Shown: positions 13,014 through 31,682 of the stretch, piece after piece
Numbering within the stretch: the first letter of the stretch is position 1
How the letters are laid out: every line of letters begins with the position of its first letter
Source: Candidatus Hodarchaeota archaeon
GTDB lineage: Archaea; Asgardarchaeota; Lokiarchaeia; Sigyniarchaeales; SOKP01
Direction of reading: 5' to 3'
NCBI GenBank assembly: GCA_048887225.1
Contig: JBHLJY010000012.1
Span: 10,710-74,709, forward strand
Length of the DNA: 64,000 nucleotides
Translations under genes and position numbers: made by a program
The notes under the pieces: model-generated
Told to the model about the DNA's origin: nothing
The model's input: the letters and a program-made list of their open reading frames with translations, nothing else
The model's database searches: none

Positions 13014-13085
13014 TTATTTCACTCCTTTTTTTTCTTTAATTTTGTTTTATTTTTTTGTAAAAAACTAATTTTGATTTTTTTTTTC

Positions 13086-13520
13086 GATCATTTTCTTCAT
13101 ATTTCTCTATAATTATAATATTAATTATGATTAATAAATGTTTTGATTACGGCATCGGACTACTAAATACATAAATGATGAGTCTGAGATTGATCAGAAA
13201 ATGAATTCTAATTAAATTGATTATCACTCTTGATCATTTTTGTTTATAAAAGAAATAAAAAAGTAAATGTGATCTTTAAAAGCAATGACTCAAAACCAAA
13301 ATTGTGATCTACGTTAAAAATTTGAGTAATTTTTAACTTAATTTAAATAAAAGTTAAATAATTATTATTTTGAGACATTGTTTTTTTTGATCACATAAAT
13401 ATGATTAATATTTGTCATTAGGGATATGATCGAAAAAGTACATAATAATATGAATAAAGCATGATTATTACTGATCCCGATATCTAACCTCACAAAAGCG
13501 ATCACTCAATATCGAAGATC
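13086..13520. promoter_or_regulatory. GATC-motif cluster in the divergent promoter of the hdrCBA operon
   Basis: Ten GATC (13086, 13192, 13232, 13271, 13306, 13389, 13428, 13473, 13500, 13517), mostly as TGATC. Confidence 0.6.
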
Positions 13521-13625
13521 GCAACACTTTTATATCAGAAATCATATACAATTATTGGAATTGAACTTAAAAATTTATCATTTCCAAAATATAAAAAAAA
13601 TAAATATTAAGAAAGGTGGATTAAA

Positions 13626-14228
13626 ATAGAAGATCTGGTATTTGATAAGTTTATTGGTAATCATGTTTCAATATATTTAATGAGAAATCATGAAGTTGAT
13701 GTTCAGCGTAAAGATGTTAGGATCTTTATGGACTATATCAATCATATCCCGATCGACTTTGTGTTAATAGATTCTGGTAGCGATCCAGTTGAAAATTTTA
13801 ATCATAGCTCTTATGCAAAAGTATTAGAAGCCTTAGAGATTCCATATTTTATAATAAATTTGCCCGATCATATAAAAGATCACTATTCAAAAGCGCTTGG
13901 TGAAATTAATTACAAACTTGAAGAATTGACATCATGCTATTCTGGGTTAAAAGATAAAAGCACTCCTGAAGCCCAAGAATTAAAATTTCTAATAGATAGA
14001 TATACGAAAGACATCCAGGAAACAGAGAAATATCTCAATTTTAAATATAGACCTCAGGCCATAATTAAAAAAATTCTAAGTATTGTAAGGAATCGAGGAG
14101 AAGAAATCACTTTTGCCCATATCGGTGATCAGAAGACTTTTCCAAGCATAATGAAACTTTTAAAAGACAATGATATAAAATCTAATGTACTATTTGTACA
14201 TAAAGCACCGACAACAGGATTGATTTAA
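13626..14228 (+). CDS. Uncharacterised TraB/ChaN/TIKI-fold-like coiled-coil protein (paralog of 17683-18324); probable non-canonical ATA start
   Basis: Shares LEALEIPYF..LP, ..R...I..KI and terminal F.H motifs with its paralogs. AGGTGGA SD precedes the in-frame ATA at 13626; the first ATG is at 13680. Confidence 0.7.
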   Translation: MEDLVFDKFIGNHVSIYLMRNHEVDVQRKDVRIFMDYINHIPIDFVLIDSGSDPVENFNHSSYAKVLEALEIPYFIINLPDHIKDHYSKALGEINYKLEELTSCYSGLKDKSTPEAQELKFLIDRYTKDIQETEKYLNFKYRPQAIIKKILSIVRNRGEEITFAHIGDQKTFPSIMKLLKDNDIKSNVLFVHKAPTTGLI

Positions 14229-18324: not shown

Positions 18325-18668
18325 ATTAATTTATACCACCTCTCAGATATTTTTATAAATCTATTTAATTCTATGTGAATAGTCAAAAGACTTGAATATA
18401 AAAAATTTGATAAGAAAAATTTTTGTCTTTTTGACAATCCTTCTTGTCATTCATCAATTTTTAGCAAAATAAGTTATCAGTAGGATTACTAATTCTTAAT
18501 TGAATTATAAATCAGGTTAAGAATGGTTATATTTATGCTATGAAAATTTTTTTTGTCAAAATTTTTGAAAGAAAATTAAAATATTTCTACAAAGAAAAGA
18601 ATTTTATTTATTAAAACTTAAATTTTTTTCGATATAGTAATGAATACAATACATTTCGTATTATAAAT

Positions 18669-18862
18669 GATCTATACTGATCGATAATATGAATAATTTC
18701 GGCGTTATTATTAATCTAGATTGATCGCAAAATCAAATGATTTTGATCTTTTGACCGATTCTTGGAATTTAATTATGCTTTTAGATCAGCAAATGGAGAA
18801 ATCAGTAGATTTAAATAGATTAATCGCTACTTTTTATATAGAAAAGCATAAAAATAATGATC
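18669..18862. promoter_or_regulatory. GATC-motif cluster upstream of the hdrD-hdrA-mvhD operon
   Basis: GATC at 18669, 18679, 18723, 18745, 18784 and 18859. Confidence 0.55.
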
Positions 18863-19124: not shown

Positions 19125-20360
19125 TTGGGGATCGGTGATTCAAATATTTATTTCTCACAAGAATCAATTAAAGACATAAAGTCTTATATAAATTATTGTT
19201 ATCACTGTTATCGATGTATTAATGTCTGTCCATTATCCCACTTAGGTGTTTTCTTTCCACAAAGGTTAATTGCAGATTTAACCTTCTCTTCAATGGAAGA
19301 TGGTTTAACAAATAATAACATATGGGAATGCCTCACCTGTGGTCAGTGTTCAATTTATTGTCCAATGACATCTAATTCTTCGGGTGTGAGAATACCTGAA
19401 TTAATTTTAGAATTAAGAAAGAAATCACGAGAGAATAAAAAACAATCTGAAAAAATGTTGTATTGTGAAACGCACAACAATATATTTCCATTGCTTACGA
19501 GATTAATGGCGGATAATCCGTTGAATCCGAACAAATTAGATTTTTTAAATGGGACAAAATTGAAGACGGCAGAAACAGGTCCAATAGCGTATTTTGTTGG
19601 ATGTTCACCATTATTACAAGATATTTTTTATAATTTTGATATAAAATATACTGATTCAGCCATTACAATAATCGCATTACTTAATGAAGCTAATTTTGTT
19701 CCAGTTGTTTTAAATGAAAAATGTTGTGGACATGATATATTGTGGGGTCTTGGAGATATTAAAAGGTTTAAAAAACTAGCTGAATATAACGTAAAACTCT
19801 ACAGAGATGCAGGCATTAAAATAGTTATCATAAGCTGTGCCGAAGGATATAGAACATGGAAGTTCGATTATCCAAAAGTGATTGATAATTTTGATTTTGA
19901 AGTATTACATTTTTCAGAATTTTTATTAAGAGAGAAAATTCTTGAAAACAAGCGATTTCCCAAAGTACATAAAATTAAAGTTACTTACCACGATTCTTGT
20001 CGACTTGGTCGCTTAAGTGATAAATTATATGATCCTCCACGGGAATTACTAAGACAAATTCCAAATGTTGAATTAATTGAGATGGAAAATATTAGAGATA
20101 ACGCTCAATGTTGTGGGGTTTCAGCTTTCCGAGGGTGCAATGAATTTACTCACTTTTTAATCCAAAAGCGTATCAACGAAGCAATTGAAACGGGTGCAGA
20201 TTATTTAATCGTTCCATGCTCAAAATGCCAAACACATTTCACTTGTTATATGAATGAACCCTCTATTAATAGAGAGAAGGGAGATTTGAGAGATAAAATA
20301 AGAATAATTGATTTAGCTAGTTTTATAGGGAGGATGTTATTTATTTTCCAAATGAATTAA
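19125..20360 (+). CDS. HdrD-like (4Fe-4S dicluster + two CCG domains) Fe-S oxidoreductase
   Basis: CYHCYRCINVCP, WECLTCGQCSIYCP, YFVGC, EKCCG, TYHDSCRLGR and CCG motifs. Confidence 0.9.
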   Translation: MGIGDSNIYFSQESIKDIKSYINYCYHCYRCINVCPLSHLGVFFPQRLIADLTFSSMEDGLTNNNIWECLTCGQCSIYCPMTSNSSGVRIPELILELRKKSRENKKQSEKMLYCETHNNIFPLLTRLMADNPLNPNKLDFLNGTKLKTAETGPIAYFVGCSPLLQDIFYNFDIKYTDSAITIIALLNEANFVPVVLNEKCCGHDILWGLGDIKRFKKLAEYNVKLYRDAGIKIVIISCAEGYRTWKFDYPKVIDNFDFEVLHFSEFLLREKILENKRFPKVHKIKVTYHDSCRLGRLSDKLYDPPRELLRQIPNVELIEMENIRDNAQCCGVSAFRGCNEFTHFLIQKRINEAIETGADYLIVPCSKCQTHFTCYMNEPSINREKGDLRDKIRIIDLASFIGRMLFIFQMN

Positions 20361-20381
20361 AAATTGCGATATAGGAGAAGA

Positions 20382-23300
20382 ATGCAAAAATTACAATCAA
20401 GTGTTTTAGTCATAGGCGGTGGGATTGCGGGCATCCAAGCATCTTTAGATCTCACAAAACTAGGTTTTAAAGTATATTTAGTTGAAATAAAACCTACCAT
20501 TGGAGGAACAATGGCACAATTAGACAAAACTTTTCCAACTCTTGATTGTAGTTTATGTATTTTAGCCCCCAAAATGGTCGAGATATATAGAAATCAAAAT
20601 ATTGAGTTATTTACCAATTCCTATATTGAAAAAATTGAAGGAGCTGCGGGAGATTATCGAGTAACGATGATAAAAATGCCGAGATATGTAAAAGAAGATG
20701 TTTGCAATGGATGTGGAGATTGTGCAAATATTTGCCCTGTAAGAGGTATTCCAAGCAAATTTGATATAAATCTAAAAACCCGTGGAGCTATATTTATCCC
20801 TTTTCCATCTTCAGTACCGCCTACTTATATAATTGATGAAACAAAATGTTTACTAATAAATTATGGAATTTGTAATTTATGTGCGAGAGTTTGTACCACC
20901 AATGCTATAGATTTTTTTCAAAAGAAGGAAGAAATAGTTTTAAATGTTGGAGCTATTGTCATTGCTACCGGTTATATCCAAAATATGCCAGGGATATATG
21001 AGAATCTTGCTGGAGAATCACGAAATGTATTATCAAGTATGCAATTTGAACGTTTATTATCCGCAAATGGTCCAACAAATGGAAATATTATAAGATTGGA
21101 TAATTATGAACGTCCAAAGTCAATTGCTTTTTTACAATGTGTTGGCTCACGAGATTTTCATCATCCTGAATGTAAGAAATATTGTTCTTCGATATGTTGT
21201 ATGGCTTCTGCTAAACAGGCAATCATCGTTAAAGAACATAATCCAGAAATTGAATGTTATATATTTAGTACTGAAATCAGAGCTAAGGGGAAAAACTTTT
21301 ATGAATTTATTGAAAGAAGTAAACATGAATATAATGTTATTTATATAAATGGTAAAGTTTCTCTTATTAAGAATTGTTCCGAAAATGGAAAATTAAAACT
21401 GTTTTATGAGGATATTGATGAGGGGATTGTGAGGACCTCAAAAGTAGATATGGCGATATTAGCAAGTGCGTTATTTCCACCTAAATCTTATTATGATCTT
21501 TTAAACCAGTTAAATGTAAGATATAATGAATTTGGTTTTATTAGAGATGATGATTTATATAGTCTCGAAAAGAAAAATATCTTTTTTATAGGTTATTCAA
21601 GAAATCCAAAAGATATTCCTTCCACTGTTGCTGAAGCCTCAGCGTGTGCTGCAAAAATTAGTGAAAGATTACACATTGTTAGATTTCAGAATGTAATCGA
21701 GTCCAAATATCCCCCTGAAATCCCTGTAAATCCTCAAGATGACCCGCGGGTTGGAATACTAATTTGTCGTTGCGGATCCAATATTGGAGGAATTGTAGAT
21801 GTTAAGAGAGTAGTTGATTATGTTTCAAAACTTCCTTACGTTGTTTATGCTGATGAAAATATGTATTCTTGCAGTTCTGATTCCCAGAAACTGATTAAAG
21901 ATATGATTTTGAAACATAATCTTAATAGATTTATAGTAGCTTCATGTACTCCTCGTACACATGAAAATCTCTTTAGAAATACACTCCGAGAGGTCGGATT
22001 AAATCCATATTTATTTGAATTAGTAAATATAAGAGATCAAGATTCTTGGGTACATCAAAATGAACCTGAACAAGCGACTAAAAAAGCTTGTGATTTAATT
22101 AGAATGTATCTTGCGAAAGTAATTAATTTGAAACCATTACAAAAAATTAAAGTTGAAGTCGAAAAGTCAGTATTAATTATAGGAGGTGGAATTGCAGGGA
22201 TTTTTTCTGCTAAAAATTTGGCAAATCAAGGTTTTGAAGTATACCTAATTGAAAGGGAGTCAATTTTAGGAGGCAGAGCTCTAGATTTTATAGATTTATA
22301 TCGTTTACCTTATATTAAAAATGACGTAATGAATACCATTAATGAATTAAAAAAAAAATCAACTGTACATATCTTATTAAATTCTGAAATAAGAGAGATA
22401 CGAGGATATGTCGGCAATTATAAAGTTATAGTAAAAAGCCATTCAAATGGAGTGAAAGAACATAAATTGAATATTGGTACAATAATAGTATCTATAGGTA
22501 CCAAGCAAAAAAGAGTTGAGAGATGGCATGATATATCAGAAAAAAATCCTATGCATGTCTTTACTCAATCAGATTTCATAAAAATTAATGATGAAAATAT
22601 CCCTAGTTTTAAAGATGCCACTATAATATTATGCGTAGATCAGAGAAAAAATGAATATAATAATGGAAATGACTCAAAGACCTATTGTTCTAATGTTTGT
22701 TGCAATATAGCATTAATGAACATCGAAAAATTGTTCCGATTGAATCCAAGAGCCCATATTCATGTTTTATATAGAGAATTGCAATTTTCAGATTTACATG
22801 CCGAAAAAATTGGGCGTGATATAAGAAAGAAAGTTCTTTTTGAAAGATATAGTTCAATTGATAATATAAAAATTTCTAAGAATACGAATCGTTTCAAGAT
22901 AAGATATTATAATGTTGGCGCTCAAACAGACATAGAATTTATTACTGATTTATTAATATTAGCAACACCGGCAATTCCAGAAAGGGGTACAGAAGAATTA
23001 GCAAAAATTTTAAAAGTTCCTACTACGAAAGATGGTTTTTTATTAGAGGCCCATGTAAAATTAAGACCAGTAGATTTCTCTACAGATGGTATATTTTTAT
23101 GTGGTGGAGCTCATTGGCCAAAATGGATTGACGAGAGTATTATTCAAGCATATGCAGCATCTGGAAGAGCAACAATGTTAATGGCAAATGGAGGGATAGA
23201 CACTGAATGTGTAACTGCTTATATGAATGAAGAAAAGTGCTTAGGGTGCGGCAGATGTGCTGAAATTTGTCCTTACAAAGCAATCGAACTAATTGATAAA

Positions 23301-23495
23301 ACCAAACAAATGGGATTATACACAATTAAAATGAAAAAAGCCCAGATTAATAGTGCCATTTGTAAGGGTTGCGGGTTATGTGTGGCAGAATGTTCGCTAG
23401 GGGCAATTGACCAAAACTTTTTTAGTAAATTGCAAATTAATAAGATGATTGAATTGTTGATTGGATTGGAAACAAAAGCAAAAGAATTTAATTAA
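20382..23495 (+). CDS. Large rearranged HdrA-family flavoprotein (two FAD-binding modules, internal N-terminal-type domain)
   Basis: Two GGGIAG motifs, internal ILICRCG..SCTPRTH..NIRDQ, EAHVKLRPVD and C-terminal ferredoxins. ATG at 20382 follows an AGGAGA SD. Confidence 0.92.
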   Translation: MQKLQSSVLVIGGGIAGIQASLDLTKLGFKVYLVEIKPTIGGTMAQLDKTFPTLDCSLCILAPKMVEIYRNQNIELFTNSYIEKIEGAAGDYRVTMIKMPRYVKEDVCNGCGDCANICPVRGIPSKFDINLKTRGAIFIPFPSSVPPTYIIDETKCLLINYGICNLCARVCTTNAIDFFQKKEEIVLNVGAIVIATGYIQNMPGIYENLAGESRNVLSSMQFERLLSANGPTNGNIIRLDNYERPKSIAFLQCVGSRDFHHPECKKYCSSICCMASAKQAIIVKEHNPEIECYIFSTEIRAKGKNFYEFIERSKHEYNVIYINGKVSLIKNCSENGKLKLFYEDIDEGIVRTSKVDMAILASALFPPKSYYDLLNQLNVRYNEFGFIRDDDLYSLEKKNIFFIGYSRNPKDIPSTVAEASACAAKISERLHIVRFQNVIESKYPPEIPVNPQDDPRVGILICRCGSNIGGIVDVKRVVDYVSKLPYVVYADENMYSCSSDSQKLIKDMILKHNLNRFIVASCTPRTHENLFRNTLREVGLNPYLFELVNIRDQDSWVHQNEPEQATKKACDLIRMYLAKVINLKPLQKIKVEVEKSVLIIGGGIAGIFSAKNLANQGFEVYLIERESILGGRALDFIDLYRLPYIKNDVMNTINELKKKSTVHILLNSEIREIRGYVGNYKVIVKSHSNGVKEHKLNIGTIIVSIGTKQKRVERWHDISEKNPMHVFTQSDFIKINDENIPSFKDATIILCVDQRKNEYNNGNDSKTYCSNVCCNIALMNIEKLFRLNPRAHIHVLYRELQFSDLHAEKIGRDIRKKVLFERYSSIDNIKISKNTNRFKIRYYNVGAQTDIEFITDLLILATPAIPERGTEELAKILKVPTTKDGFLLEAHVKLRPVDFSTDGIFLCGGAHWPKWIDESIIQAYAASGRATMLMANGGIDTECVTAYMNEEKCLGCGRCAEICPYKAIELIDKTKQMGLYTIKMKKAQINSAICKGCGLCVAECSLGAIDQNFFSKLQINKMIELLIGLETKAKEFN

Positions 23496-23510
23496 TAACG
23501 AGTGATTAAT

Positions 23511-23975
23511 ATGTCAAAATCCAGAACGAAAAAATATGAAGAATTTGAACCAAATATATTAGTTTTTTGTTGTAATTGGTGTAGCTATGCAGGAGCGGAT
23601 CTAGCTGGGGTTTCGAGGTTCCAATACCCATCAACTATTCGTATTGTTAGAGTCATGTGTTCGGGCAGAGTTGAGCCTGCATTTATCTTAAGAGCTTTTT
23701 ATAATGGAATTGATGGTGTTATAGTTACAGGATGCCATATAGGTGATTGTCATTATATTAAAGGTAATGAACATGCATATATTCGTTTGGAACATTTACA
23801 AAATCTATTGAAAAAAATTGGAATTGAAGAGGAAAGATTTCTAATCCATCCTATTTCAGCCAGCGAAGGAAAGAAATTTTCTGAATTAATAAAAGAATTT
23901 ACAGAAAAAGTCAAGAAAGAAGGGATTTTAAAAATTGCTAAAAAATTAGGGCTTTTAGAGTTTCAGTATAGTTAA
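23511..23975 (+). CDS. mvhD: MvhD [2Fe-2S] subunit
   Basis: FCCNWCSYAGADLAG, RVMCSGRV and GCHIGDCHY motifs. Confidence 0.95.
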   Translation: MSKSRTKKYEEFEPNILVFCCNWCSYAGADLAGVSRFQYPSTIRIVRVMCSGRVEPAFILRAFYNGIDGVIVTGCHIGDCHYIKGNEHAYIRLEHLQNLLKKIGIEEERFLIHPISASEGKKFSELIKEFTEKVKKEGILKIAKKLGLLEFQYS

Positions 23976-24407: not shown

Positions 24408-25889
24408 CTAACAGTTTTTTAGTATAGTTGGTTTACAATTATTCTTTTTTTCCATTGCGAGTTTTTCGATTAATAATTGACGTTTTCTTACATCTATTTT
24501 AGGATTTAATTTTACCAAACCTTTATCAATCGCTCTATGAAGAAGAAGCTCTCCTTTTTTGGTTCTAGTAATAACTGAAGACCATCCAGAATCTGAACCA
24601 ATCGCTCCTACAGAAATATCTGCAAATTCTGCTGTTAAATCAGAGCAATAATTACAAAAATTCGCAAAGTAAGATCGGCATTCTTTTAATGAAATAGATA
24701 TAATTTCTCCATTAATTAGATTTAGAAATAACCTACCTTTTTTGATATCCATTTTAACGACATCATCAAGCTCTAAATTAAACTTATATTTAATTAAATT
24801 CATCAAATTCTCATAAGTGAATGTTTTCATACAGAATAGACCAATTTTATATTTGATGTTGTCGAACATCCCCAAATTTAATGGCAAATGTTCTGCTTTT
24901 GCAAGAGCTCTAATTTTACATGGAAGTGCAACTATAGCGATTTTCTTATACTTTTTTGTTTTATTAAGTACAGATAGAATCGGAGCATTTGAATAAATGC
25001 TACCTTGGGTTTTATCCAAATATAGCTTGTTCTTAATGATTGCAATCTTAGGTTTCCAAAATTTTCTCGAATGTTTAACAGTTATAACAGCGTCAACTAG
25101 TTTCTCATCTAATAAATAATAAAGTAATGAACTAATTATGCCTCCATCCTGCTTTTTTTCGTTAAATTCATCTATTAAAGTCTTTGCTGAATATATCTTT
25201 TTATAGTATCCAAGGTTTTCCGTATAATTTAAAGAACTTTGAAAACTTTTTTTATAATTATATAATGGCTGATATGGAACTGAATGAGGACAAACACTAT
25301 AACATAAACCACATGTAATACATTCACTCTCATCTACATATACATAATTATCAGTTTGTTCAATAATATCAATTGGACAAATTGATAAACATAGCCCACA
25401 TCTGGTGCAAATACCACTATCATCAAATGTTAAAATCGATTTGAAATAATTTTCTTGAATTAGGTTTGCGTTGCGTTTGATCTGATATTTTTTTTCTAGT
25501 TTCTGTTCCAAAATCGAACTTCTCTCATCATTGTCCAATATAACCTCAGATTCAATGCTCTCATTAATTAATCCTTTATCTTTTAGATTTAAAATCTCAT
25601 AAATCGTATTAATGGAGGGAAAATCAAAAATTTCAACAATTCCCTCCAATGATAATGGTTGTTTTCCTTTTAACTTCTGAATGATGTATTTTCGCTTTGC
25701 TGCTTCATCTAATATCGATTTTAAAATTAAATTGAGGGTTTTTTCATCAAATTTCCCGTGTTCTAAAATACGTTTCCTTGCTTTAAATAAAGATCTAAAC
25801 TGAAAGTCATTTGAAGCCTTAAGGAAAGAAGTTTTCATCTTATCTGGTGGGATTCCTTTATAATTATAGAAATCACTTATTTTAATCAT
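24408..25889 (-). CDS. N-terminal winged-helix-like domain + ferredoxin + FrhB (F420-binding) family protein
   Basis: YIIQKLKGKQPLSLEGIVEIFDFPSINTIYEILNLKDKGLI; two CxxCxxC motifs; QDGGIIS, ALPC, IGLFC and CNYCSDLTAEFADISVG. Confidence 0.85.
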   Translation of the reverse strand: MIKISDFYNYKGIPPDKMKTSFLKASNDFQFRSLFKARKRILEHGKFDEKTLNLILKSILDEAAKRKYIIQKLKGKQPLSLEGIVEIFDFPSINTIYEILNLKDKGLINESIESEVILDNDERSSILEQKLEKKYQIKRNANLIQENYFKSILTFDDSGICTRCGLCLSICPIDIIEQTDNYVYVDESECITCGLCYSVCPHSVPYQPLYNYKKSFQSSLNYTENLGYYKKIYSAKTLIDEFNEKKQDGGIISSLLYYLLDEKLVDAVITVKHSRKFWKPKIAIIKNKLYLDKTQGSIYSNAPILSVLNKTKKYKKIAIVALPCKIRALAKAEHLPLNLGMFDNIKYKIGLFCMKTFTYENLMNLIKYKFNLELDDVVKMDIKKGRLFLNLINGEIISISLKECRSYFANFCNYCSDLTAEFADISVGAIGSDSGWSSVITRTKKGELLLHRAIDKGLVKLNPKIDVRKRQLLIEKLAMEKKNNCKPTILKNC

Positions 25890-25919
25890 ATTTTTTCATT
25901 CCTTCCTCTTTTTTAATTA

Positions 25920-26068
25920 GATCCTATTTATTGTAAAGAATTTTTTTTTTTACTTGATCCAAAATCGGCATTTTTTTATTAAATATCACAATAAATATAT
26001 ATGAGTTCGATCATTTAAATTTTAGGAAGCGATCATTTATTTTTTCATGATCGATAACATTCATGATC
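25920..26068. promoter_or_regulatory. GATC-motif cluster in the divergent promoter between the two FrhB-HTH genes
   Basis: GATC at 25920, 25956, 26009, 26031, 26049 and 26065. Confidence 0.55.
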
Positions 26069-26108
26069 AATAATTATAAAAATTTAAAGAAAATTTGTGG
26101 TTTGAAAA

Positions 26109-27545
26109 GTGTTAACAAAAGAAAATATGATAGAATATTTAGAATCTTATAATATAGGGTATGGGTTTCAGGATTTATGTGATTTAGTAATTAACAAAAA
26201 AAATTGTATATTTTGTGGAACATGTGCCTCACTTTGTCCCCGTATTGGGATTATAAAAAATAAACCGACCCTTTTAGAAAGCGATCCAGAATGTTCATTA
26301 TGTTCAAGATACTGTGCGAGAACTTACTTCCCTGAAGAGGTGTTTGAAAGAGAGATTTTCAATAATCAAAATCATCGGGATTTTATCTTAGGTTATTATC
26401 AAAAAGCAATAATAGCAAAAAGTACTGATGAAAGCATATTAAAGGTTGCCCAGAATGGTGGAGTGATAACAACATTACTTATTTATGCTTTGAATAAGGG
26501 ATTAATTGATGGAGTATTGCTTACTAATAGAGATGAAAATTGGTTACCCAAACCTTTTGTTGCGAGAACACCAGAAGAAATACTATCATGTTCAGGTTCA
26601 AAATATACTATAGCCCCTACCTTAATTTCATACAGTGATGCAATTCATGAATATGAACTTGAAAAACTTGCATTTGTAGGTATGCCTTGTCAAATTCTAG
26701 CAGCAAGAAAACTCCAATTATGTCCTCCATTATCAGATAAATTAGGTCAATTTAAAATAATTATTGGAATTTTTTGTTCAGTAAATTATAAATATGATTT
26801 AATAGAAAAGATTTTTGTACAGGATTTAAACAAAAAATTGGAGAATGTTAGTAAATTTGATATTTCAGATGGAATATTGTCAGTTATTTCAAAAGATGGT
26901 AGTATAATAAAACTCTCAACTAAATATATTAAAGAATTCATTTGGCCCAGTTGTCGATATTGTAAAGATTTTACTTCCGAATATGCTGATATCTCAGTTG
27001 GTAATGTAGGTGCTCCCTCTGGAGATTTTAATAGCCTTATTGTACGTTCTGATATAGGTAAATCTTTACTGGATAATGCCATCTCTGAAAAGAGAATTAT
27101 AACAACTAATACAATTGATCTTGCAAAAATTAAAATGGAATCTTTAAGAAAGAAATCAGAAATAACTAAAGTTGATAAAAAGATTATTTCTGCCTTGAGA
27201 TTTTTTAATATCCCTGATCTTGAAGCAAAAGTTTATGCCACGTTAATCTCTTTAGGATATACTAATATTGCTCTGCTTAGTGACGTAATGAAAATGGAGT
27301 ATAAAAAAATCTACAAAGCTTTGGAAAAGTTAAAGCGACGTAAATGGATTGTTGAGTTTAATGGTGGCTACAGAACAATTAATCCAATTCAAGTTATGAA
27401 AAATGAAATAACTAAATTCAAAGCCAATTTAGAAAAAAAAATTAATAAATTCAAATCTGAGGTTTTAAAAGAGTTAGAGATCCTTTTTTTACAAAACAAT
27501 ATTCAGCATATAAAATATAATGAATACAATGATTTTTTCTACTGA
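26109..27545 (+). CDS. FrhB-family protein fused to a C-terminal TrmB-type HTH
   Basis: QNGGVIT, GSKY, VGMPCQ, IGIFC and CRYCKDFTSEYADISVG, then IPDLEAKVYATLISLG...IYKALEKLKRRKWIVE...YRTINP. Confidence 0.88.
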   Translation: MLTKENMIEYLESYNIGYGFQDLCDLVINKKNCIFCGTCASLCPRIGIIKNKPTLLESDPECSLCSRYCARTYFPEEVFEREIFNNQNHRDFILGYYQKAIIAKSTDESILKVAQNGGVITTLLIYALNKGLIDGVLLTNRDENWLPKPFVARTPEEILSCSGSKYTIAPTLISYSDAIHEYELEKLAFVGMPCQILAARKLQLCPPLSDKLGQFKIIIGIFCSVNYKYDLIEKIFVQDLNKKLENVSKFDISDGILSVISKDGSIIKLSTKYIKEFIWPSCRYCKDFTSEYADISVGNVGAPSGDFNSLIVRSDIGKSLLDNAISEKRIITTNTIDLAKIKMESLRKKSEITKVDKKIISALRFFNIPDLEAKVYATLISLGYTNIALLSDVMKMEYKKIYKALEKLKRRKWIVEFNGGYRTINPIQVMKNEITKFKANLEKKINKFKSEVLKELEILFLQNNIQHIKYNEYNDFFY

Positions 27546-27662
27546 AAATAAAAAATATACAAAATTCTTTATAATAATAAATAATCTAATCAACAGTAGT
27601 TGCTATAGAATTTTCTTTTAGTAAGATTCCAATTTGATATGGCAAAAATAATTGATATAATC

Positions 27663-28082
27663 CTATTTAATTATATCTGTTATGAAACAAGTTTCTACAA
27701 TATGTATACCTTCTATTTGGCTTATTTTCTCTTCAAGTAAAGGATTGAATTGCTCTAACGAGGGGATTTCAACCATTATAAATAGACCACAATCTCCGCT
27801 TAAACGCCAAATATTATTTATCTCATCTATTTTTTTCAATTCTGTTAAAATCCTCTTAATATCCTTGAAGTTTGGCTCAATTTTTACTGTTGCCCTAGTT
27901 TTAGGTTTCGAATTAACCTCATAATCTATTGTAAATCTTATAATTATTCCATCTTCAATTAATTTTTTCACACGACGACGAACTGTAGCTTCTGTTTTCC
28001 CTATTTTGTGAGAAATTTCATTAAAGGAAATTCTACTATCTTGTTTTAATTCCTCAAGTATTTTAAGATCTATTATATCCAT
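27663..28082 (-). CDS. Lrp/AsnC family transcriptional regulator
   Basis: MDIIDLKILEELKQDSRISFNEIS...TVRRRVKKLIEDGII; C-terminal RAM domain. Confidence 0.95.
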   Translation of the reverse strand: MDIIDLKILEELKQDSRISFNEISHKIGKTEATVRRRVKKLIEDGIIIRFTIDYEVNSKPKTRATVKIEPNFKDIKRILTELKKIDEINNIWRLSGDCGLFIMVEIPSLEQFNPLLEEKISQIEGIHIVETCFITDIIK

Positions 28083-28406: not shown

Positions 28407-29498
28407 TTAAAAATCTTGATATCGCTTTATTTTTAAACGTGAATATTTTATAAGTAGATCTTTCATTTCATTTTTTTTTGATGCCTCTAGATCTATGCAC
28501 TTAATCACTCCTGTCTCTAATGCTTTTGAAATAAGATCTGCGCCTTTTTTAGTACGAGTTAAAACTGTTGTAAATTTATCTGATGATGCTAATCCTCCAA
28601 ATGAAATATCTGCATAGATATTAGTAAAATCATAGCAAGAATAACAAGCAGCGCGCATATAGGTATTTAATCGATGAAAAGGAATATGAAGGATTTTTTG
28701 CCCATTATTATTTAATTTGAGTCTTAAATCTTCTTTAATGTTTATCTTTTCAATTTTTTCAAATTTAATATGAAATTCTTTTTCAAAATTCTTTATCTTG
28801 AGTTTATCAAAAAAGAAATTTTCATAGCAAAATAATCCTAAACAAATCTCAATGTTTTGTGAAGGCACAACTCCTAAATTTTGCATGCATCTAATAGTAT
28901 AAATTTGACATGGTGTCCCCACAACTGCCAATTTTTTAAATTTATAATGATTTAATTTAGGAATTGATTGAGTATAAGTATTAAATTCTTTTATTTTATC
29001 CAATTGTGAAGAAATATCTAGTTTAATACCCGATGCCTCGATTAAGTCTTCCTTATTTTTAGCAAGTATAGCTTCTCGGGAAAAGGGGGACTTAGAATTT
29101 GCTACAATTGCACCATCAATTATTTTCTTTTTTATTAAATAATCTATAATTGAATTTACAACACCGCCATCAGTTCCGTATTTTAAAAAATCTCTGTCCA
29201 TGGCTTGACAAGAATAGATATCGCGAAAAAATCCAATTGGCATGGAATAAAACTCTGAAAAATTATGTATTTTATTTAAGTCATCATCTAAAATATGTGT
29301 TTGTGGACAAATGCAATAACAAATCCCGCATTCGAGGCATTTTTCTTCATTTATAAATTTTGGAGGTGAGTTTAAATCTTTAAATTCAATAATATCATAG
29401 TCCGCTGAACTACAAAAACTTACACACCCCCCACATTGTTGACAAATCCCTAAATCATGAACTTCTTTAATCAAATCTTTAAATCCTTTTGGGTTCAT
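28407..29498 (-). CDS. Stand-alone FrhB/FdhB-family F420-interacting subunit with ferredoxin domain
   Basis: CQQCGGCVSFC, TDGGVV, VVGTPCQ, LGLFCYENF and CYSCYDFTNIYADISFG motifs. Confidence 0.9.
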   Translation of the reverse strand: MNPKGFKDLIKEVHDLGICQQCGGCVSFCSSADYDIIEFKDLNSPPKFINEEKCLECGICYCICPQTHILDDDLNKIHNFSEFYSMPIGFFRDIYSCQAMDRDFLKYGTDGGVVNSIIDYLIKKKIIDGAIVANSKSPFSREAILAKNKEDLIEASGIKLDISSQLDKIKEFNTYTQSIPKLNHYKFKKLAVVGTPCQIYTIRCMQNLGVVPSQNIEICLGLFCYENFFFDKLKIKNFEKEFHIKFEKIEKINIKEDLRLKLNNNGQKILHIPFHRLNTYMRAACYSCYDFTNIYADISFGGLASSDKFTTVLTRTKKGADLISKALETGVIKCIDLEASKKNEMKDLLIKYSRLKIKRYQDF

Positions 29499-29544: not shown

Positions 29545-29615
29545 TCCGAAAGCCCACACTAAGGGCTAGTTCCCTTTCAACTAAGATTTATTTGGAAGGG
29601 GCATTCTATTTCGGA
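29545..29615 (-). promoter_or_regulatory. Structured 3'-UTR element after Sec-hdrA (SECIS candidate)
   Basis: UCCGAAA/UUUCGGA outer stem enclosing CCCUUCCAA/UUGAAAGGG and AGCCC/GGGCU hairpins. GC-rich island in AT-rich DNA. Confidence 0.55.
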
Positions 29616-29630
29616 TTAAATCTATTGAGA

Positions 29631-31682
29631 TTAGTTAATTATTTCACCTTTTCTTTTAATTTCATCAATAATTTCTTCCGATTTCTTTTTTAAGCTAATA
29701 TGATCTATAGTGTCAGCATATTCGACGTCATAACTACAAATACCCTTAATTTCTTCTACTATTTGATTATCTCGATAATATATAAGATCGATAGCTCTTG
29801 ACGGACAGGATGTTACTCAAATCCCACAGCCCTTACATTTTAACTCGTCAACTATAGCTGCATTATCAGGACCTACTTTTATGGCTTGATATTCACATAA
29901 TTTTTCACACCTATGACAACCCATACATAGATATGAGTTAACTTCTACGATAATTAACTCCTGTATTATCGAGTCCTTCGAAAATAAAGTTGCTACCTTA
30001 CTTGCTGCTGCTAATGCCGTCGATACAGAATATGGTATATTTTTTGGTCCAACCGCACATCCACATATATATATGCCAGTATTCTTTGTTTCTTGAGGTT
30101 TTAAACACCCATGTATTTCTGTTATAAATCCATTTGGATCTTTTCCTAATCCAAAGATCTCAACAATTTTATCTGTCGTTATTGATGGAACTATTCCTGT
30201 GGATAAAATAACTAAATCCACGTCAAGATTAATCATATCACCAGTTAAAGTTGAAGATGCATGAATCTTTAATTGGTTTGTTTCTGGATCCTCCTTGATT
30301 TCTCCTACTTTTCCACGAATCATTAAAATACCTAGTTCTCTTGCTTTTCTATAGTATTCTTCATTTCCTTTATCAGGTGTTCTTATATCTATATAGAAAA
30401 TGATAATTTCCATTTCAGGGTATTCTTGCTTTAACAATTGAGCATTTTTAAGAGCAACACATCATCAAACAATTGAACAATACGGATTCCCTTTTAAAGA
30501 TCTCGAACCTACACATTGTATCATCGCAACCTTTTTAGGTGCCTTTCCATCAGAAATTCGACATAATTTGCCTCCTGTTGGTCCAACAGGACTTAACATT
30601 CTCTCCAATTCTATTTGTGTAATAACATTAGGATAAATTCCATAGTTATAGTCATTATTTTCATTAATTTGATATTCATCCCAGCCAATAGCTACGATTA
30701 TTGCTCCAATATTAACATTAATGTATTCAGGTTTTTGATTGAAATCAATTGCATCAGCTACACAATTTTTCTGGCAACTTTTACAACCAATACATGCATC
30801 TTTATCGATAAGAGCAACTTTTGGGACAGCTTGAGGGAAGGGAACATAAATAGCGTTCCTTTTCCCTAAACCCCTATCAAATTCATTAGGGATTTTTATC
30901 GGGCATTTTGTTGTACATAAACCACAGCCAGTACATTTTCTTTCTTTTACATAACGAGGATTTTTTCTAATTTTCACATTGTAATTTCCTGGAATCCCAC
31001 TGAATTCAATAATTTCGCTATAAGTAAATAGATTTATATTTGGGTGTTTATAAGTATTAACCATTATTGGAGCAAGAACTCAAATCGCACAATCGTCTGT
31101 AGGATAAATCCGATCTAACTGTGCCATTTTTCCTCCAATGGTAGGTTCTTTTTCAACTAAATAAACAATAATTCCTTGATTCGCTAGATCTAAGGCAGCA
31201 TTCATACCAGCTATTCCAGCACCTATGACTAACGCTGCTTTTTTTACTGAAATTTTTTTACAAGGGATGATTTCTAAATTACGAGCTCGATTTATACCTG
31301 CTTTTACTAATCTTTTTGCTTTTTCTGTCGCACTTTCTGGATCATCTGAATGAACAAATGAACACTGTTCTCGAAGATTAACCATTTGAAAATAGTATGG
31401 ACTTAATCCAGTTTCATCCAAAACACTCCTATATGTTTCTTCATGAATTTTTGGCGTACAAGCAGCAACAACTATTCTGTTTAAATCTAATTGTAATATA
31501 TCTTTTTTAATGATTTCCTGCCCTGGATCACTACATGTAAAATCATTACATCTAGAAATAATTACATTGGGTAATGTTATAACAAAATCCCTCACGATAA
31601 TACAATCAATCGTTGCACCAATATTAACACCTCATCTACAAATATATACTCCAATTCGAATATTGGTCTGTTCTTCAGACAT
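29631..31682 (-). CDS. hdrA: Selenocysteine-containing HdrA, 683 aa, five in-frame UGA (codons 17, 201, 406, 407, 622)
   Basis: Three track ORFs plus flanks lie in one frame. UGA at 31632, 31080, 30465, 30462 and 29817 give ICRUG, DCAIUVL, CSIVUUC and CGIUVTSCP, where the paralogs have Cys. Confidence 0.9.

Follow-up and report, generated by a model that had tools for sequence, protein, structure and literature searches.

A divergent pair of FrhB-family proteins in an Asgard archaeon: one winged helix points to an enzyme adaptor, the other may belong to a redox-sensing regulator

The window, a stretch of 64,000 nucleotides from a Candidatus Hodarchaeota archaeon (GCA_048887225.1, contig JBHLJY010000012.1), contains two divergently transcribed genes of the FrhB family, P0001 and P0002. 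The initial annotation had placed these two open reading frames at exactly the coordinates found here and had noted an adjoining Lrp regulator, which is confirmed. It was also right that neither frhA nor frhG is adjacent: no hydrogenase subunit gene adjoins either FrhB gene. The locus is organized as follows.

24408-25889, minus strand: P0001, 493 aa, composed of a helical and winged-helix extension, a 2x[4Fe-4S] ferredoxin and FrhB
25890-26108, no strand: divergent spacer between P0001 and P0002, 219 bp with six GATC
26109-27545, plus strand: P0002, FrhB-TrmB fusion, 478 aa, GTG start
27663-28082, minus strand: Lrp/AsnC-family regulator, 139 aa (HTH_24 62 bits, AsnC_trans_reg 42 bits)
28407-29498, minus strand: third FrhB paralog, 363 aa, ferredoxin and FrhB without winged helix
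24201-24395, minus strand: small ORF of 64 aa, 3' of P0001, with a conserved C-terminal L-D/E-A-K-I-x-H/R-K/R-x-x-x-E-G-D
19125-23975, plus strand: operon of hdrD-like (CCG), double hdrA and canonical mvhD genes, convergent with P0001
15998-18324: operon of a 213-aa protein and Mpt_N, with a box copy 348 bp upstream

P0001 is composed of a ferredoxin-FrhB module and an N-terminal extension.

25434-25889, minus strand: N-terminal extension, aa 1-152; the winged helix, aa 74-137, corresponds to 25479-25670
24501-25424, minus strand: ferredoxin, aa 156-204, and FrhB_N/FrhB_C, aa 232-463 (Pfam)

FrhB_N and FrhB_C (PF04422 and PF04432) are recognized with 68.5 and 131.8 bits, and C324, C353, C412 and C415 as well as Q247-G250 are invariant in 40 homologs. 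The 150 N-terminal residues have no Pfam match, HTH_68 being the best with E 0.12. In the AF2 model (pLDDT 81), the extension forms four helices and a winged helix, in agreement with the wHTH-like segment noticed earlier ahead of the FrhB module. A Foldseek search of the extension against the PDB gave nothing at E <= 0.001 (best E 0.02). VIA-align retrieved generic wHTH proteins of the PadR, MarR and IclR types with Z <= 7.1, the best match having Z 7.1 and an rmsd of 6.2 Å over 87 residues. A profile of the extension matches stand-alone ArsR/HTH_5-like proteins. The winged-helix region of P0001-type proteins is acidic (mean charge -2.6), and its H2-H3 region, with a mean charge of -2.5, is not basic. 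An ArsR-, PadR- or MarR-type regulator was considered for the extension and rejected; there is no family match and no basic helix, only a generic fold.

In 17 of the 77 P0001 homologs, an MvhD-like domain precedes the extension, which is itself followed by ferredoxin and FrhB. Because the extension is internal in these relatives, we read it as an adaptor linked to Hdr/MvhD. P0001-type winged helices are also found on a canonical MvhD (P0257) and joined to FrhB-GltD enzymes (P0261). The acidic character of the winged helix, its lack of a Pfam HTH match and the MvhD-like context therefore indicate an adaptor of enzyme complexes. Judged from sequence, the P0001 extension points to an Hdr/MvhD-linked enzyme adaptor and not to a regulator. 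One of the two winged helices of the pair thus resembles a docking element within an electron-transfer complex.

FrhB paralogs of methanogens and ANME cluster with hdrA and mvhD, and coupling of F420 to Hdr has been proposed for them (PMC9012536). P0001 resembles these modules through the MvhD-like domain that its relatives carry as a fusion. The Asgard proteins differ by the insertion of the helical and winged-helix adaptor, and their fused MvhD-like domain lacks the Cys ligands. These domains are 13-24% identical to the window MvhD, the Cys motifs of which are intact. With such identities and the Cys motifs missing, they were discarded as an alignment for the window MvhD. A predicted complex of P0001 (alignment A4) with the window MvhD had a score of 0.00 and a mark of 0.32 and was used neither way.

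In P0002, the winged helix lies at the other end of the protein.

26184-26348, plus strand: ferredoxin domain, aa 26-80, with seven invariant Cys (Fer4, 26-70)
26409-27110, plus strand: FrhB_N and FrhB_C, aa 101-334, with the FAD loop QNGG and the [4Fe-4S] ligands C194, C223, C282 and C285
27195-27392, plus strand: TrmB-type wHTH, aa 363-428, its recognition helix carrying Y402 at the position of TrmB Y50
27384-27533, plus strand: C-terminal long helix, coiled coil, aa 426-475, with invariant N463 and N464

Pfam identifies FrhB_N (101-172, 89.7 bits), FrhB_C (185-334, 118.9 bits) and TrmB (PF01978, 363-428, 34.6 bits for a cut-off of 25.6). The motifs QNGG, PCQ, GIFC, CRYCKD and ADISVG are present and invariant across 54 homologs, as are the four cysteines C194, C223, C282 and C285 and the flavin loop Q115-G118. 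At the position of the GTG start, the aligned orthologs have ATG. AF2 models residues 338-478 (pLDDT 87) as a wHTH and a 50-residue helix. The top Foldseek matches of this model are TrmBL2 (E 2e-5, TM 0.61-0.66), and the tail profile matches TrmBL2 (E 2e-4) and TrmB (E 7e-4) by sequence. Pfam, motifs and AF2 agree with the earlier description of P0002 as a protein in which a complete FrhB module precedes a TrmB wHTH and a coiled coil; the AlphaFold check proposed for the two HTH segments gives winged helices in both P0001 and P0002. With TIGR03289, the FrhB equivalog, scores of 221-223 bits for a cut-off of 331.5 show that we are not dealing with the genuine FrhB of an F420-reducing hydrogenase. 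F420 is a plausible ligand of the FrhB modules, because cofG, cofD and cofE are all above curated cut-offs in the Asgard host genome.

As in the TrmB family (P. furiosus TrmB, 3QPH; TrmBL2, 5BPD), the wHTH of P0002 is followed by an amphipathic dimerisation helix, PF01978 scores above its cut-off and a tyrosine occupies the Tyr50-equivalent position. The coiled coil should make P0002 a dimer. The wHTH of the window protein has a net charge of +5, and its Y402 aligns with TrmB Tyr50, called essential for DNA recognition (PMC4158304). The domain order is opposite to that of TrmB: the FrhB module (aa 1-335), the presumed sensor, is N-terminal and the putative DNA-binding module (aa 363-428) C-terminal. 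TrmB pairs its wHTH with a sugar-binding domain, P0002 with a flavo-Fe-S oxidoreductase. In addition, the tyrosine is not conserved across the FrhB-TrmB family.

The PF01978+PF04432+PF04422 architecture is common to more than 250 homologs collected with the whole protein, including those at 50-60% identity to P0002. Using an alignment as query, the full-length fusion was found at ~45 Asgard species loci, with no non-Asgard match; a single-protein query gave no loci, and a word-index search using just the tail matched only the window's own protein. The fusion is thus a recurrent Asgard protein, which contradicts the absence from related genomes that the initial annotation had named as a refutation. 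Pfam still recognizes most members as TrmB. The recognition helix is not conserved in the family: the net charge of the wHTH is close to zero overall, many recognition helices begin with E-E and, within the set of loci compared, Tyr at the Tyr50 position is retained by a single clade (7 loci) and by the window. The fusion gene is mostly monocistronic. Hdr or MvhD genes are found within 6 kb of it at ~14 of 44 loci and P0001-type genes at 7 of 44; at locus L042, it is located directly 3' of hdrA-mvhD. Databases name both FrhB-TrmB and P0001-type proteins only "F420 hydrogenase beta subunit C-terminal domain", and our literature search found no paper on the FrhB-TrmB fusion.

The spacer between the two genes contains repeated motifs, and a related box lies elsewhere in the window.

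26009-26017 and 26031-26039: GATCATTTA
26048-26057: TGATCGATAA
26064-26073: TGATCAATAA
18660-18690, minus strand: box copy ATAGATCATTTATAAT, 348 bp 5' of the operon of the 213-aa protein and Mpt_N; same box and distance at locus L021

The repeats are two copies of GATCATTTA and two of TGATC(G/A)ATAA. A GATC-rich divergent promoter had been proposed here, and the spacer indeed has six GATC in a genome where this tetranucleotide occurs about as often as expected (9075 observed against 9167). It is one of just six 220-bp stretches of the genome with at least six GATC, and three of the genome's six densest GATC clusters lie in redox promoters of the window. GATCATTTA occurs genome-wide at chance (83 copies, ~95 expected), several intergenic copies being near unrelated genes (EF-1A, beta-oxidation, lipid genes). 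A GATC-centred palindrome was not retained, its arms TATATGCAAAT and ATTTATATG being only imperfectly symmetric.

A box, GATCATTTATAT with at most one mismatch, is found at about -98 to -132 in 17 of 41 orthologous loci, belonging to three protein clades; its flanks have diverged in the loci that share it. The box recurs ahead of P0001-type and Mtd operons. Extra copies lie 100-110 bp 5' of P0001-type genes at loci lacking the divergent arrangement of the pair (L028, L030, L044), and the box is also present ~330-350 bp 5' of the operon of a 210-aa protein (213 aa in the window) and Mpt_N, in L021 and in the window. Three 31-bp tandem units, AAATGATC-N4-TCGATAAT, precede a HEAT + FrhB operon in the same genome. 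The recognition helix is more basic where the box is present (+3.5 versus +0.5; Mann-Whitney p 8e-5, uncorrected for phylogeny and drawn from just 2-3 independent clades). A PWM of the 17 orthologous boxes gave nothing above 14 bits at the window sites and one match elsewhere in the genome, so that the argument for a regulon in this genome rests on short motifs. Orthologs with a perfect box have Y, N, K, V, R or I at the Tyr50-equivalent position, so that something other than the recognition helix may read the box. The box includes a TATA-like TTTATAT; it might represent a conserved core promoter acting in both directions or be bound by a different factor, for example Lrp, a regulator of this family adjoining the pair as first described.

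P0001 and P0002 are not two copies of one thing. We tentatively prefer to see P0001 as an adaptor-bearing electron-input subunit and P0002 as a redox-responsive regulator akin to trigger enzymes. Trigger enzymes such as PutA and BirA combine an active cofactor-dependent enzyme and a DNA-binding domain in one polypeptide, and in PutA the redox state of the flavin switches the protein away from DNA. Their folds and cofactors are unrelated to those of P0002, the DNA binding of which is putative, and we know of no F420- or Fe-S-linked trigger enzyme. In our proposal, P0001 would be an F420-type electron-input subunit, with the extension tying its ferredoxin-FrhB module to MvhD/HdrA-type partners. 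P0002, in which a complete F420-reductase-like chain of ferredoxin domain, [4Fe-4S] and FAD precedes the TrmB wHTH and the presumably dimer-forming coiled coil, would act in this lineage as a PutA-like trigger enzyme. On sequence criteria, its TrmB-type tail may be part of a redox-sensing regulator. The flavin and Fe-S centres of P0002 would be reduced or oxidised according to F420H2/F420 and/or ferredoxin. Their redox state would alter the seating of the two wHTHs on GATC-centred boxes overlapping BRE/TATA, at the P0002 promoter and likewise at those of P0001-type, Mtd and Hdr operons. Expression would thereby track the low-potential electron pool of the cell. The domain architecture and its conservation, the folds, the intact cofactor ligands, the F420 biosynthesis genes and the conserved upstream box are observed; DNA binding, the ligand, the reader of the box and the sign of the control are inferred. 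A bolder version, which we regard as rather unlikely, would make Lokiarchaeia-type FrhB-TrmB proteins the first transcription factors to read the F420 (or ferredoxin) pool directly through an intact flavin/Fe-S module and to control Hdr, FrhB and Wood-Ljungdahl operons through a GATC-centred BRE/TATA box.

A close rival, of nearly the same probability, would have P0002 act purely as an enzyme, either a dimeric F420:ferredoxin oxidoreductase or an Hdr-linked F420 oxidoreductase, with a TrmB-derived tail that serves dimerisation or docking and has ceased to bind DNA; the box would be a core promoter, as its TATA-like core suggests, or belong to another regulator. The nearest solved homolog of P0002 (residues 22-354, E 4e-57) is the zeta F420-reductase subunit of the Ca. 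Ethanoperedens thermophilum CODH (8RIU chain B). It shares a ferredoxin domain, with two clusters and alignable to that of P0002, an FrhB-like F420-reductase domain and a C-terminal extension, which forms the homodimer interface in the CODH complex (PMC11493965). The zeta extension has ~20 residues for dimerisation, whereas that of P0002 has ~140 residues forming a TrmB wHTH and a coiled coil; zeta sits in the CODH complex, whereas P0002-type genes mostly have no partner genes nearby. The invariance of every P0002 cofactor ligand and the chain of three clusters and FAD, as required of a docking enzyme subunit, argue for the enzyme. So do the variable, often acidic recognition helices of the family, the Hdr/MvhD neighbours at one third of the loci with the L042 gene right after hdrA-mvhD, and P0001 as a case of a winged helix used as a structural part in such enzymes. 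Against it, most members score as TrmB in Pfam, whereas the P0001 winged helix is outside every Pfam HTH model, the window P0002 helix is basic with the TrmB Tyr kept, two thirds of the loci lack redox partner genes within 6 kb, and tandem box arrays are unexpected for a plain core promoter.

The initial annotation had considered both P0001 and P0002 as one-component regulators sensing F420/F420H2. The shared winged-helix fold, the repeated boxes in the spacer common to the pair and the stand-alone ArsR-like proteins among the remote relatives of the P0001 extension would fit. This reading is improbable: the P0001 helix is acidic and without Pfam HTH match, is internal between MvhD-like domain and ferredoxin in 17 homologs, and also occurs on MvhD alone (P0257) and on FrhB-GltD enzymes (P0261). 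Only its P0002 half stands as possible, tempered by a recognition helix not conserved family-wide and a nearest solved homolog that is a docking subunit. Least probable of all, the P0002 tail would bind DNA non-specifically and tether an active redox enzyme to chromatin, in the manner of TrmBL2, its best match by structure and sequence and described as a chromosomal protein (PMC4158304); non-specific binding would make recognition-helix variability matter less, but the wHTH is neutral or acidic in many members. No function is known to us for an F420 enzyme tethered to chromatin.

Among prokaryotes, Asgard archaea are the closest to the eukaryotes and, to our knowledge, the regulation of their energy metabolism is essentially unknown. 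DNA binding by FrhB-TrmB would make the protein a sensor responding directly to a pool of low-potential cofactor, and would open a redox regulon of Hdr, FrhB and methylene-H4MPT dehydrogenase operons to experiment. In the opposite case, regulator-derived winged helices would have been reused as structural parts of electron-bifurcating complexes, as seems already the case for P0001.

Several features of the neighbourhood had been omitted from the initial annotation: the third FrhB paralog, the hdr/mvhD operon, the 64-aa ORF and a [NiFe] hydrogenase large-subunit gene located ~8 kb downstream. The 64-aa ORF is also found 3' of P0001-type genes in three other genomes.

The genome holding the window (3.27 Mb, ca 30% G+C; the window is C12:10710-74709) gives 11 FrhB_C matches. 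By the source names of its proteins' homologs, it belongs to the Asgard archaea (Promethearchaeota). F420 is probably made by this organism, since cofG, cofD and cofE all score over curated cut-offs. The two FrhB genes of interest, P0001 and P0002, were found as ORFs at exactly the positions of the initial annotation, and Pfam domains and AF2 folds confirm its observation that each carries a winged-helix part. The genes concerned are the following (window positions); the operon at 19125-23975, the third FrhB paralog, the two HdrA-encoding genes between 29631 and 34803 and the hydrogenase gene were missed in the initial annotation.

19125-23975, operon of hdrD-like, double-hdrA and mvhD genes, converging on P0001
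24201-24395 (-), 64-aa ORF located 3' of P0001, C-terminal motif LDAKI.HKK.REGD
24408-25889 (-), P0001: two [4Fe-4S] motifs 156-204, FrhB_N/FrhB_C 232-463
26109-27545 (+), P0002: ferredoxin motif 26-70, FrhB_N 101-172, FrhB_C 185-334, TrmB (PF01978) 363-428
27663-28082 (-), Lrp/AsnC protein
28407-29498, third FrhB paralog
29631-31682 (-), HdrA with five in-frame TGA codons
32254-34803 (+), DUF7347(wHTH)-HdrA-MvhD gene
ca 8 kb downstream, [NiFe] hydrogenase large-subunit gene

The TrmB match of P0002 reaches 34.6 bits for a Pfam cut-off of 25.6. The combination PF01978+PF04432+PF04422 is common to more than 250 homologs of equal length, with 50-60% identity. In a scan with one genome per species, full-length matches were found at ca 45 Asgard loci. 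Non-Asgard matches (Methanobacteriota, Hydrothermarchaeota and others) end near residue 360 and therefore lack the tail. As judged from these alignments, the FrhB-TrmB fusion is conserved and restricted to Asgard archaea. Of 201 genomes sampled evenly across the phylum, ca 19 contain the tail within a 470-500-aa frame, in three families.

The AF2 model of P0002 residues 338-478 (pLDDT 87) is composed of a linker helix, a wHTH and a 50-residue helix. By structure it matches TrmBL2 chains best (E 2e-5, TM 0.61-0.66), and a profile of the tail also matches TrmBL2 and TrmB at the sequence level. Within the family, every Cys ligand and the QNGG loop are invariant. The FrhB module is nearest to 8RIU chain B (E 4e-57), the zeta F420-reductase subunit of Ethanoperedens CODH, in which a ferredoxin domain with two clusters and an F420-reductase domain are followed by a short extension at the C-terminus that makes the homodimer interface (PMC11493965). 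P0002 may be read as only a dimeric F420 oxidoreductase that uses a regulator-derived tail for pairing, a possibility which we rate almost as high as our preferred reading. The latter, itself tentative and somewhat short of an even bet, is that in this lineage P0002 acts as a redox-responsive regulator of the trigger-enzyme kind.

The gene neighbourhood of the fusion is variable. In the closest relative the P0001/P0002 pair is again divergent, and in another the two types of genes are co-directional. P0001-type genes lie within 6 kb of the fusion gene at 7 of 44 species loci, and Hdr or MvhD genes at ca 14 of 44. At the remaining loci the fusion gene stands alone, flanked by unrelated genes. 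Carboxylesterase or alpha-beta-hydrolase genes occur near a stand-alone fusion gene at three unrelated loci (L013 9660-11204, L014 10569-11777, L011 2859-3836), possibly by chance.

A box, GATCATTTATAT (at most 1 mismatch), is present between -98 and -132, in most cases at -102 to -104, in 17 of 41 orthologous upstream regions. These 17 loci belong to three protein clades and the flanks of the box have diverged among them. In L028, L030 and L044 the two genes are not arranged divergently, and the P0001-type gene has a second copy 100-110 bp 5' of it. Another copy lies ca 330-350 bp 5' of the operon encoding a 210-aa protein and Mpt_N, in L021 and in the window (18672). The box holds a TATA-like TTTATAT, and may serve as core promoter, as an operator overlying BRE/TATA, or as both. 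The spacer between P0001 and P0002 contains two GATCATTTA at 22-bp distance and two TGATC(G/A)ATAA at 16-bp distance. GATC occurs at the expected frequency in the genome as a whole, and three of the six genome stretches with at least six GATC per 220 bp lie in divergent redox promoter regions of the window (13085-13631, 18668-18858 and 25919-26064). On contig C16 (28243-28320), three tandem 31-bp units AAATGATC-N4-TCGATAAT precede an operon made up of a HEAT-repeat gene (C16:26571-28151) and the gene of a FrhB paralog of 502 aa that is extended at its C-terminus. Other genomic copies of the short motifs are located near unrelated genes, and a genome scan with a PWM of the box recovered no clean regulon.

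A second clade (L020, L027, L032-L034, L037, L038, L048, L052, L058, L060) lacks the GATC box in front of the fusion gene. Instead, the region ca 200 to 90 bp upstream contains the conserved, I/V/L-rich end of a coding sequence (..IIIVAVLI.*) together with a strong hairpin (AAGCGAAACAAATCCGC...GCGGTTTTGTTCGCTT), an arrangement resembling that of a leader peptide or a terminator.

Tyr50 of the TrmB recognition helix is essential (review, PMC4158304). Alignment to TrmB and TrmBL2 places P0002 Y402 at this position, where a tyrosine is also observed at seven loci forming one clade. Among other orthologs, some of which have a perfect box, the residue is N, R, K, I or V. The wHTH net charge is +5 in P0002 versus a family mean of ca 0. 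The recognition helix is more basic in box-bearing loci (+3.5 versus +0.5, p 8e-5), a comparison behind which stand only two or three independent clades. Tyrosine, basic helix and upstream box are kept in only some clades; P0002 is one of the proteins with all three.

The first 150 residues of P0001 matched none of the Pfam families. AF2 (pLDDT 81) predicts four helices and a winged helix, whose structural matches are generic wHTH proteins and nothing more specific. Ca 100 full-length Asgard homologs include this extension. A profile search of 1.8 billion representatives retrieved 69 relatives. They include further proteins of winged-helix-ferredoxin-FrhB type (HTH_IclR scores 29.9 bits in one of them), a fusion of winged-helix-ferredoxin-FrhB-GltD type, the protein P0257, in which a P0001-type winged helix follows a canonical MvhD, and stand-alone ArsR-like proteins of ca 115 aa. 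Since the P0001 winged helix is internal to redox proteins, acidic (mean charge -2.6; H2-H3 region -2.5) and outside every Pfam HTH model, its best interpretation is that of a docking piece or enzyme adaptor, not a regulator. The proposal that both proteins are one-component regulators can thus be correct in kind for no more than one of the two: it does not hold for P0001, and P0002 is a candidate only.

In 17 of 77 P0001 homologs, an extra 130-140 residues annotated FlpD/MvhD precede the extension. Such fused domains (P0126-P0158, first ca 135 residues) contain 0-3 cysteines and lack the CCNWCSY and GCHxGDCHY motifs of canonical MvhD; they are probably cluster-less docking domains. The window's own MvhD keeps its Cys motifs. 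Directly before each of two P0001 paralogs of this genome (contigs C16 and C1) is a gene whose product carries the MvhD-like motif GPNPIN at its C-terminus. The motif of the 64-aa ORF, which has no Pfam match, is conserved in four genomes, the three others being Asgard genomes with 80-86-aa ORFs after P0001-type genes.

The 684-codon HdrA frame is interrupted only by TGA at positions 17, 201, 406, 407 and 622, consistent with a multi-selenocysteine HdrA. An element of ca 45 nt (TTAGTTGAAAGGGAACTA..TGGG.TTTCGGAA) lies 3' of this gene (29545-29615; C12:40293, -), with similar copies 3' of the MvhD-like genes preceding the two P0001 paralogs (C1:229438, -; C16:31055, +). It is a candidate SECIS-like structure. 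The 849-aa DUF7347-HdrA-MvhD protein, with an N-terminal wHTH-like DUF7347 (42.8 bits) and HdrA, ferredoxin and MvhD domains, is the third winged-helix-to-redox fusion inside 10 kb, and GATCATTTA is found 53 bp 5' of its gene. Another FrhB fusion is a 630-aa paralog (C23:25570-27459, -) whose C-terminal region, on inspection by eye, looks similar to an FAD/NAD-binding and Fe-S electron-transfer subunit (PyrK-like).
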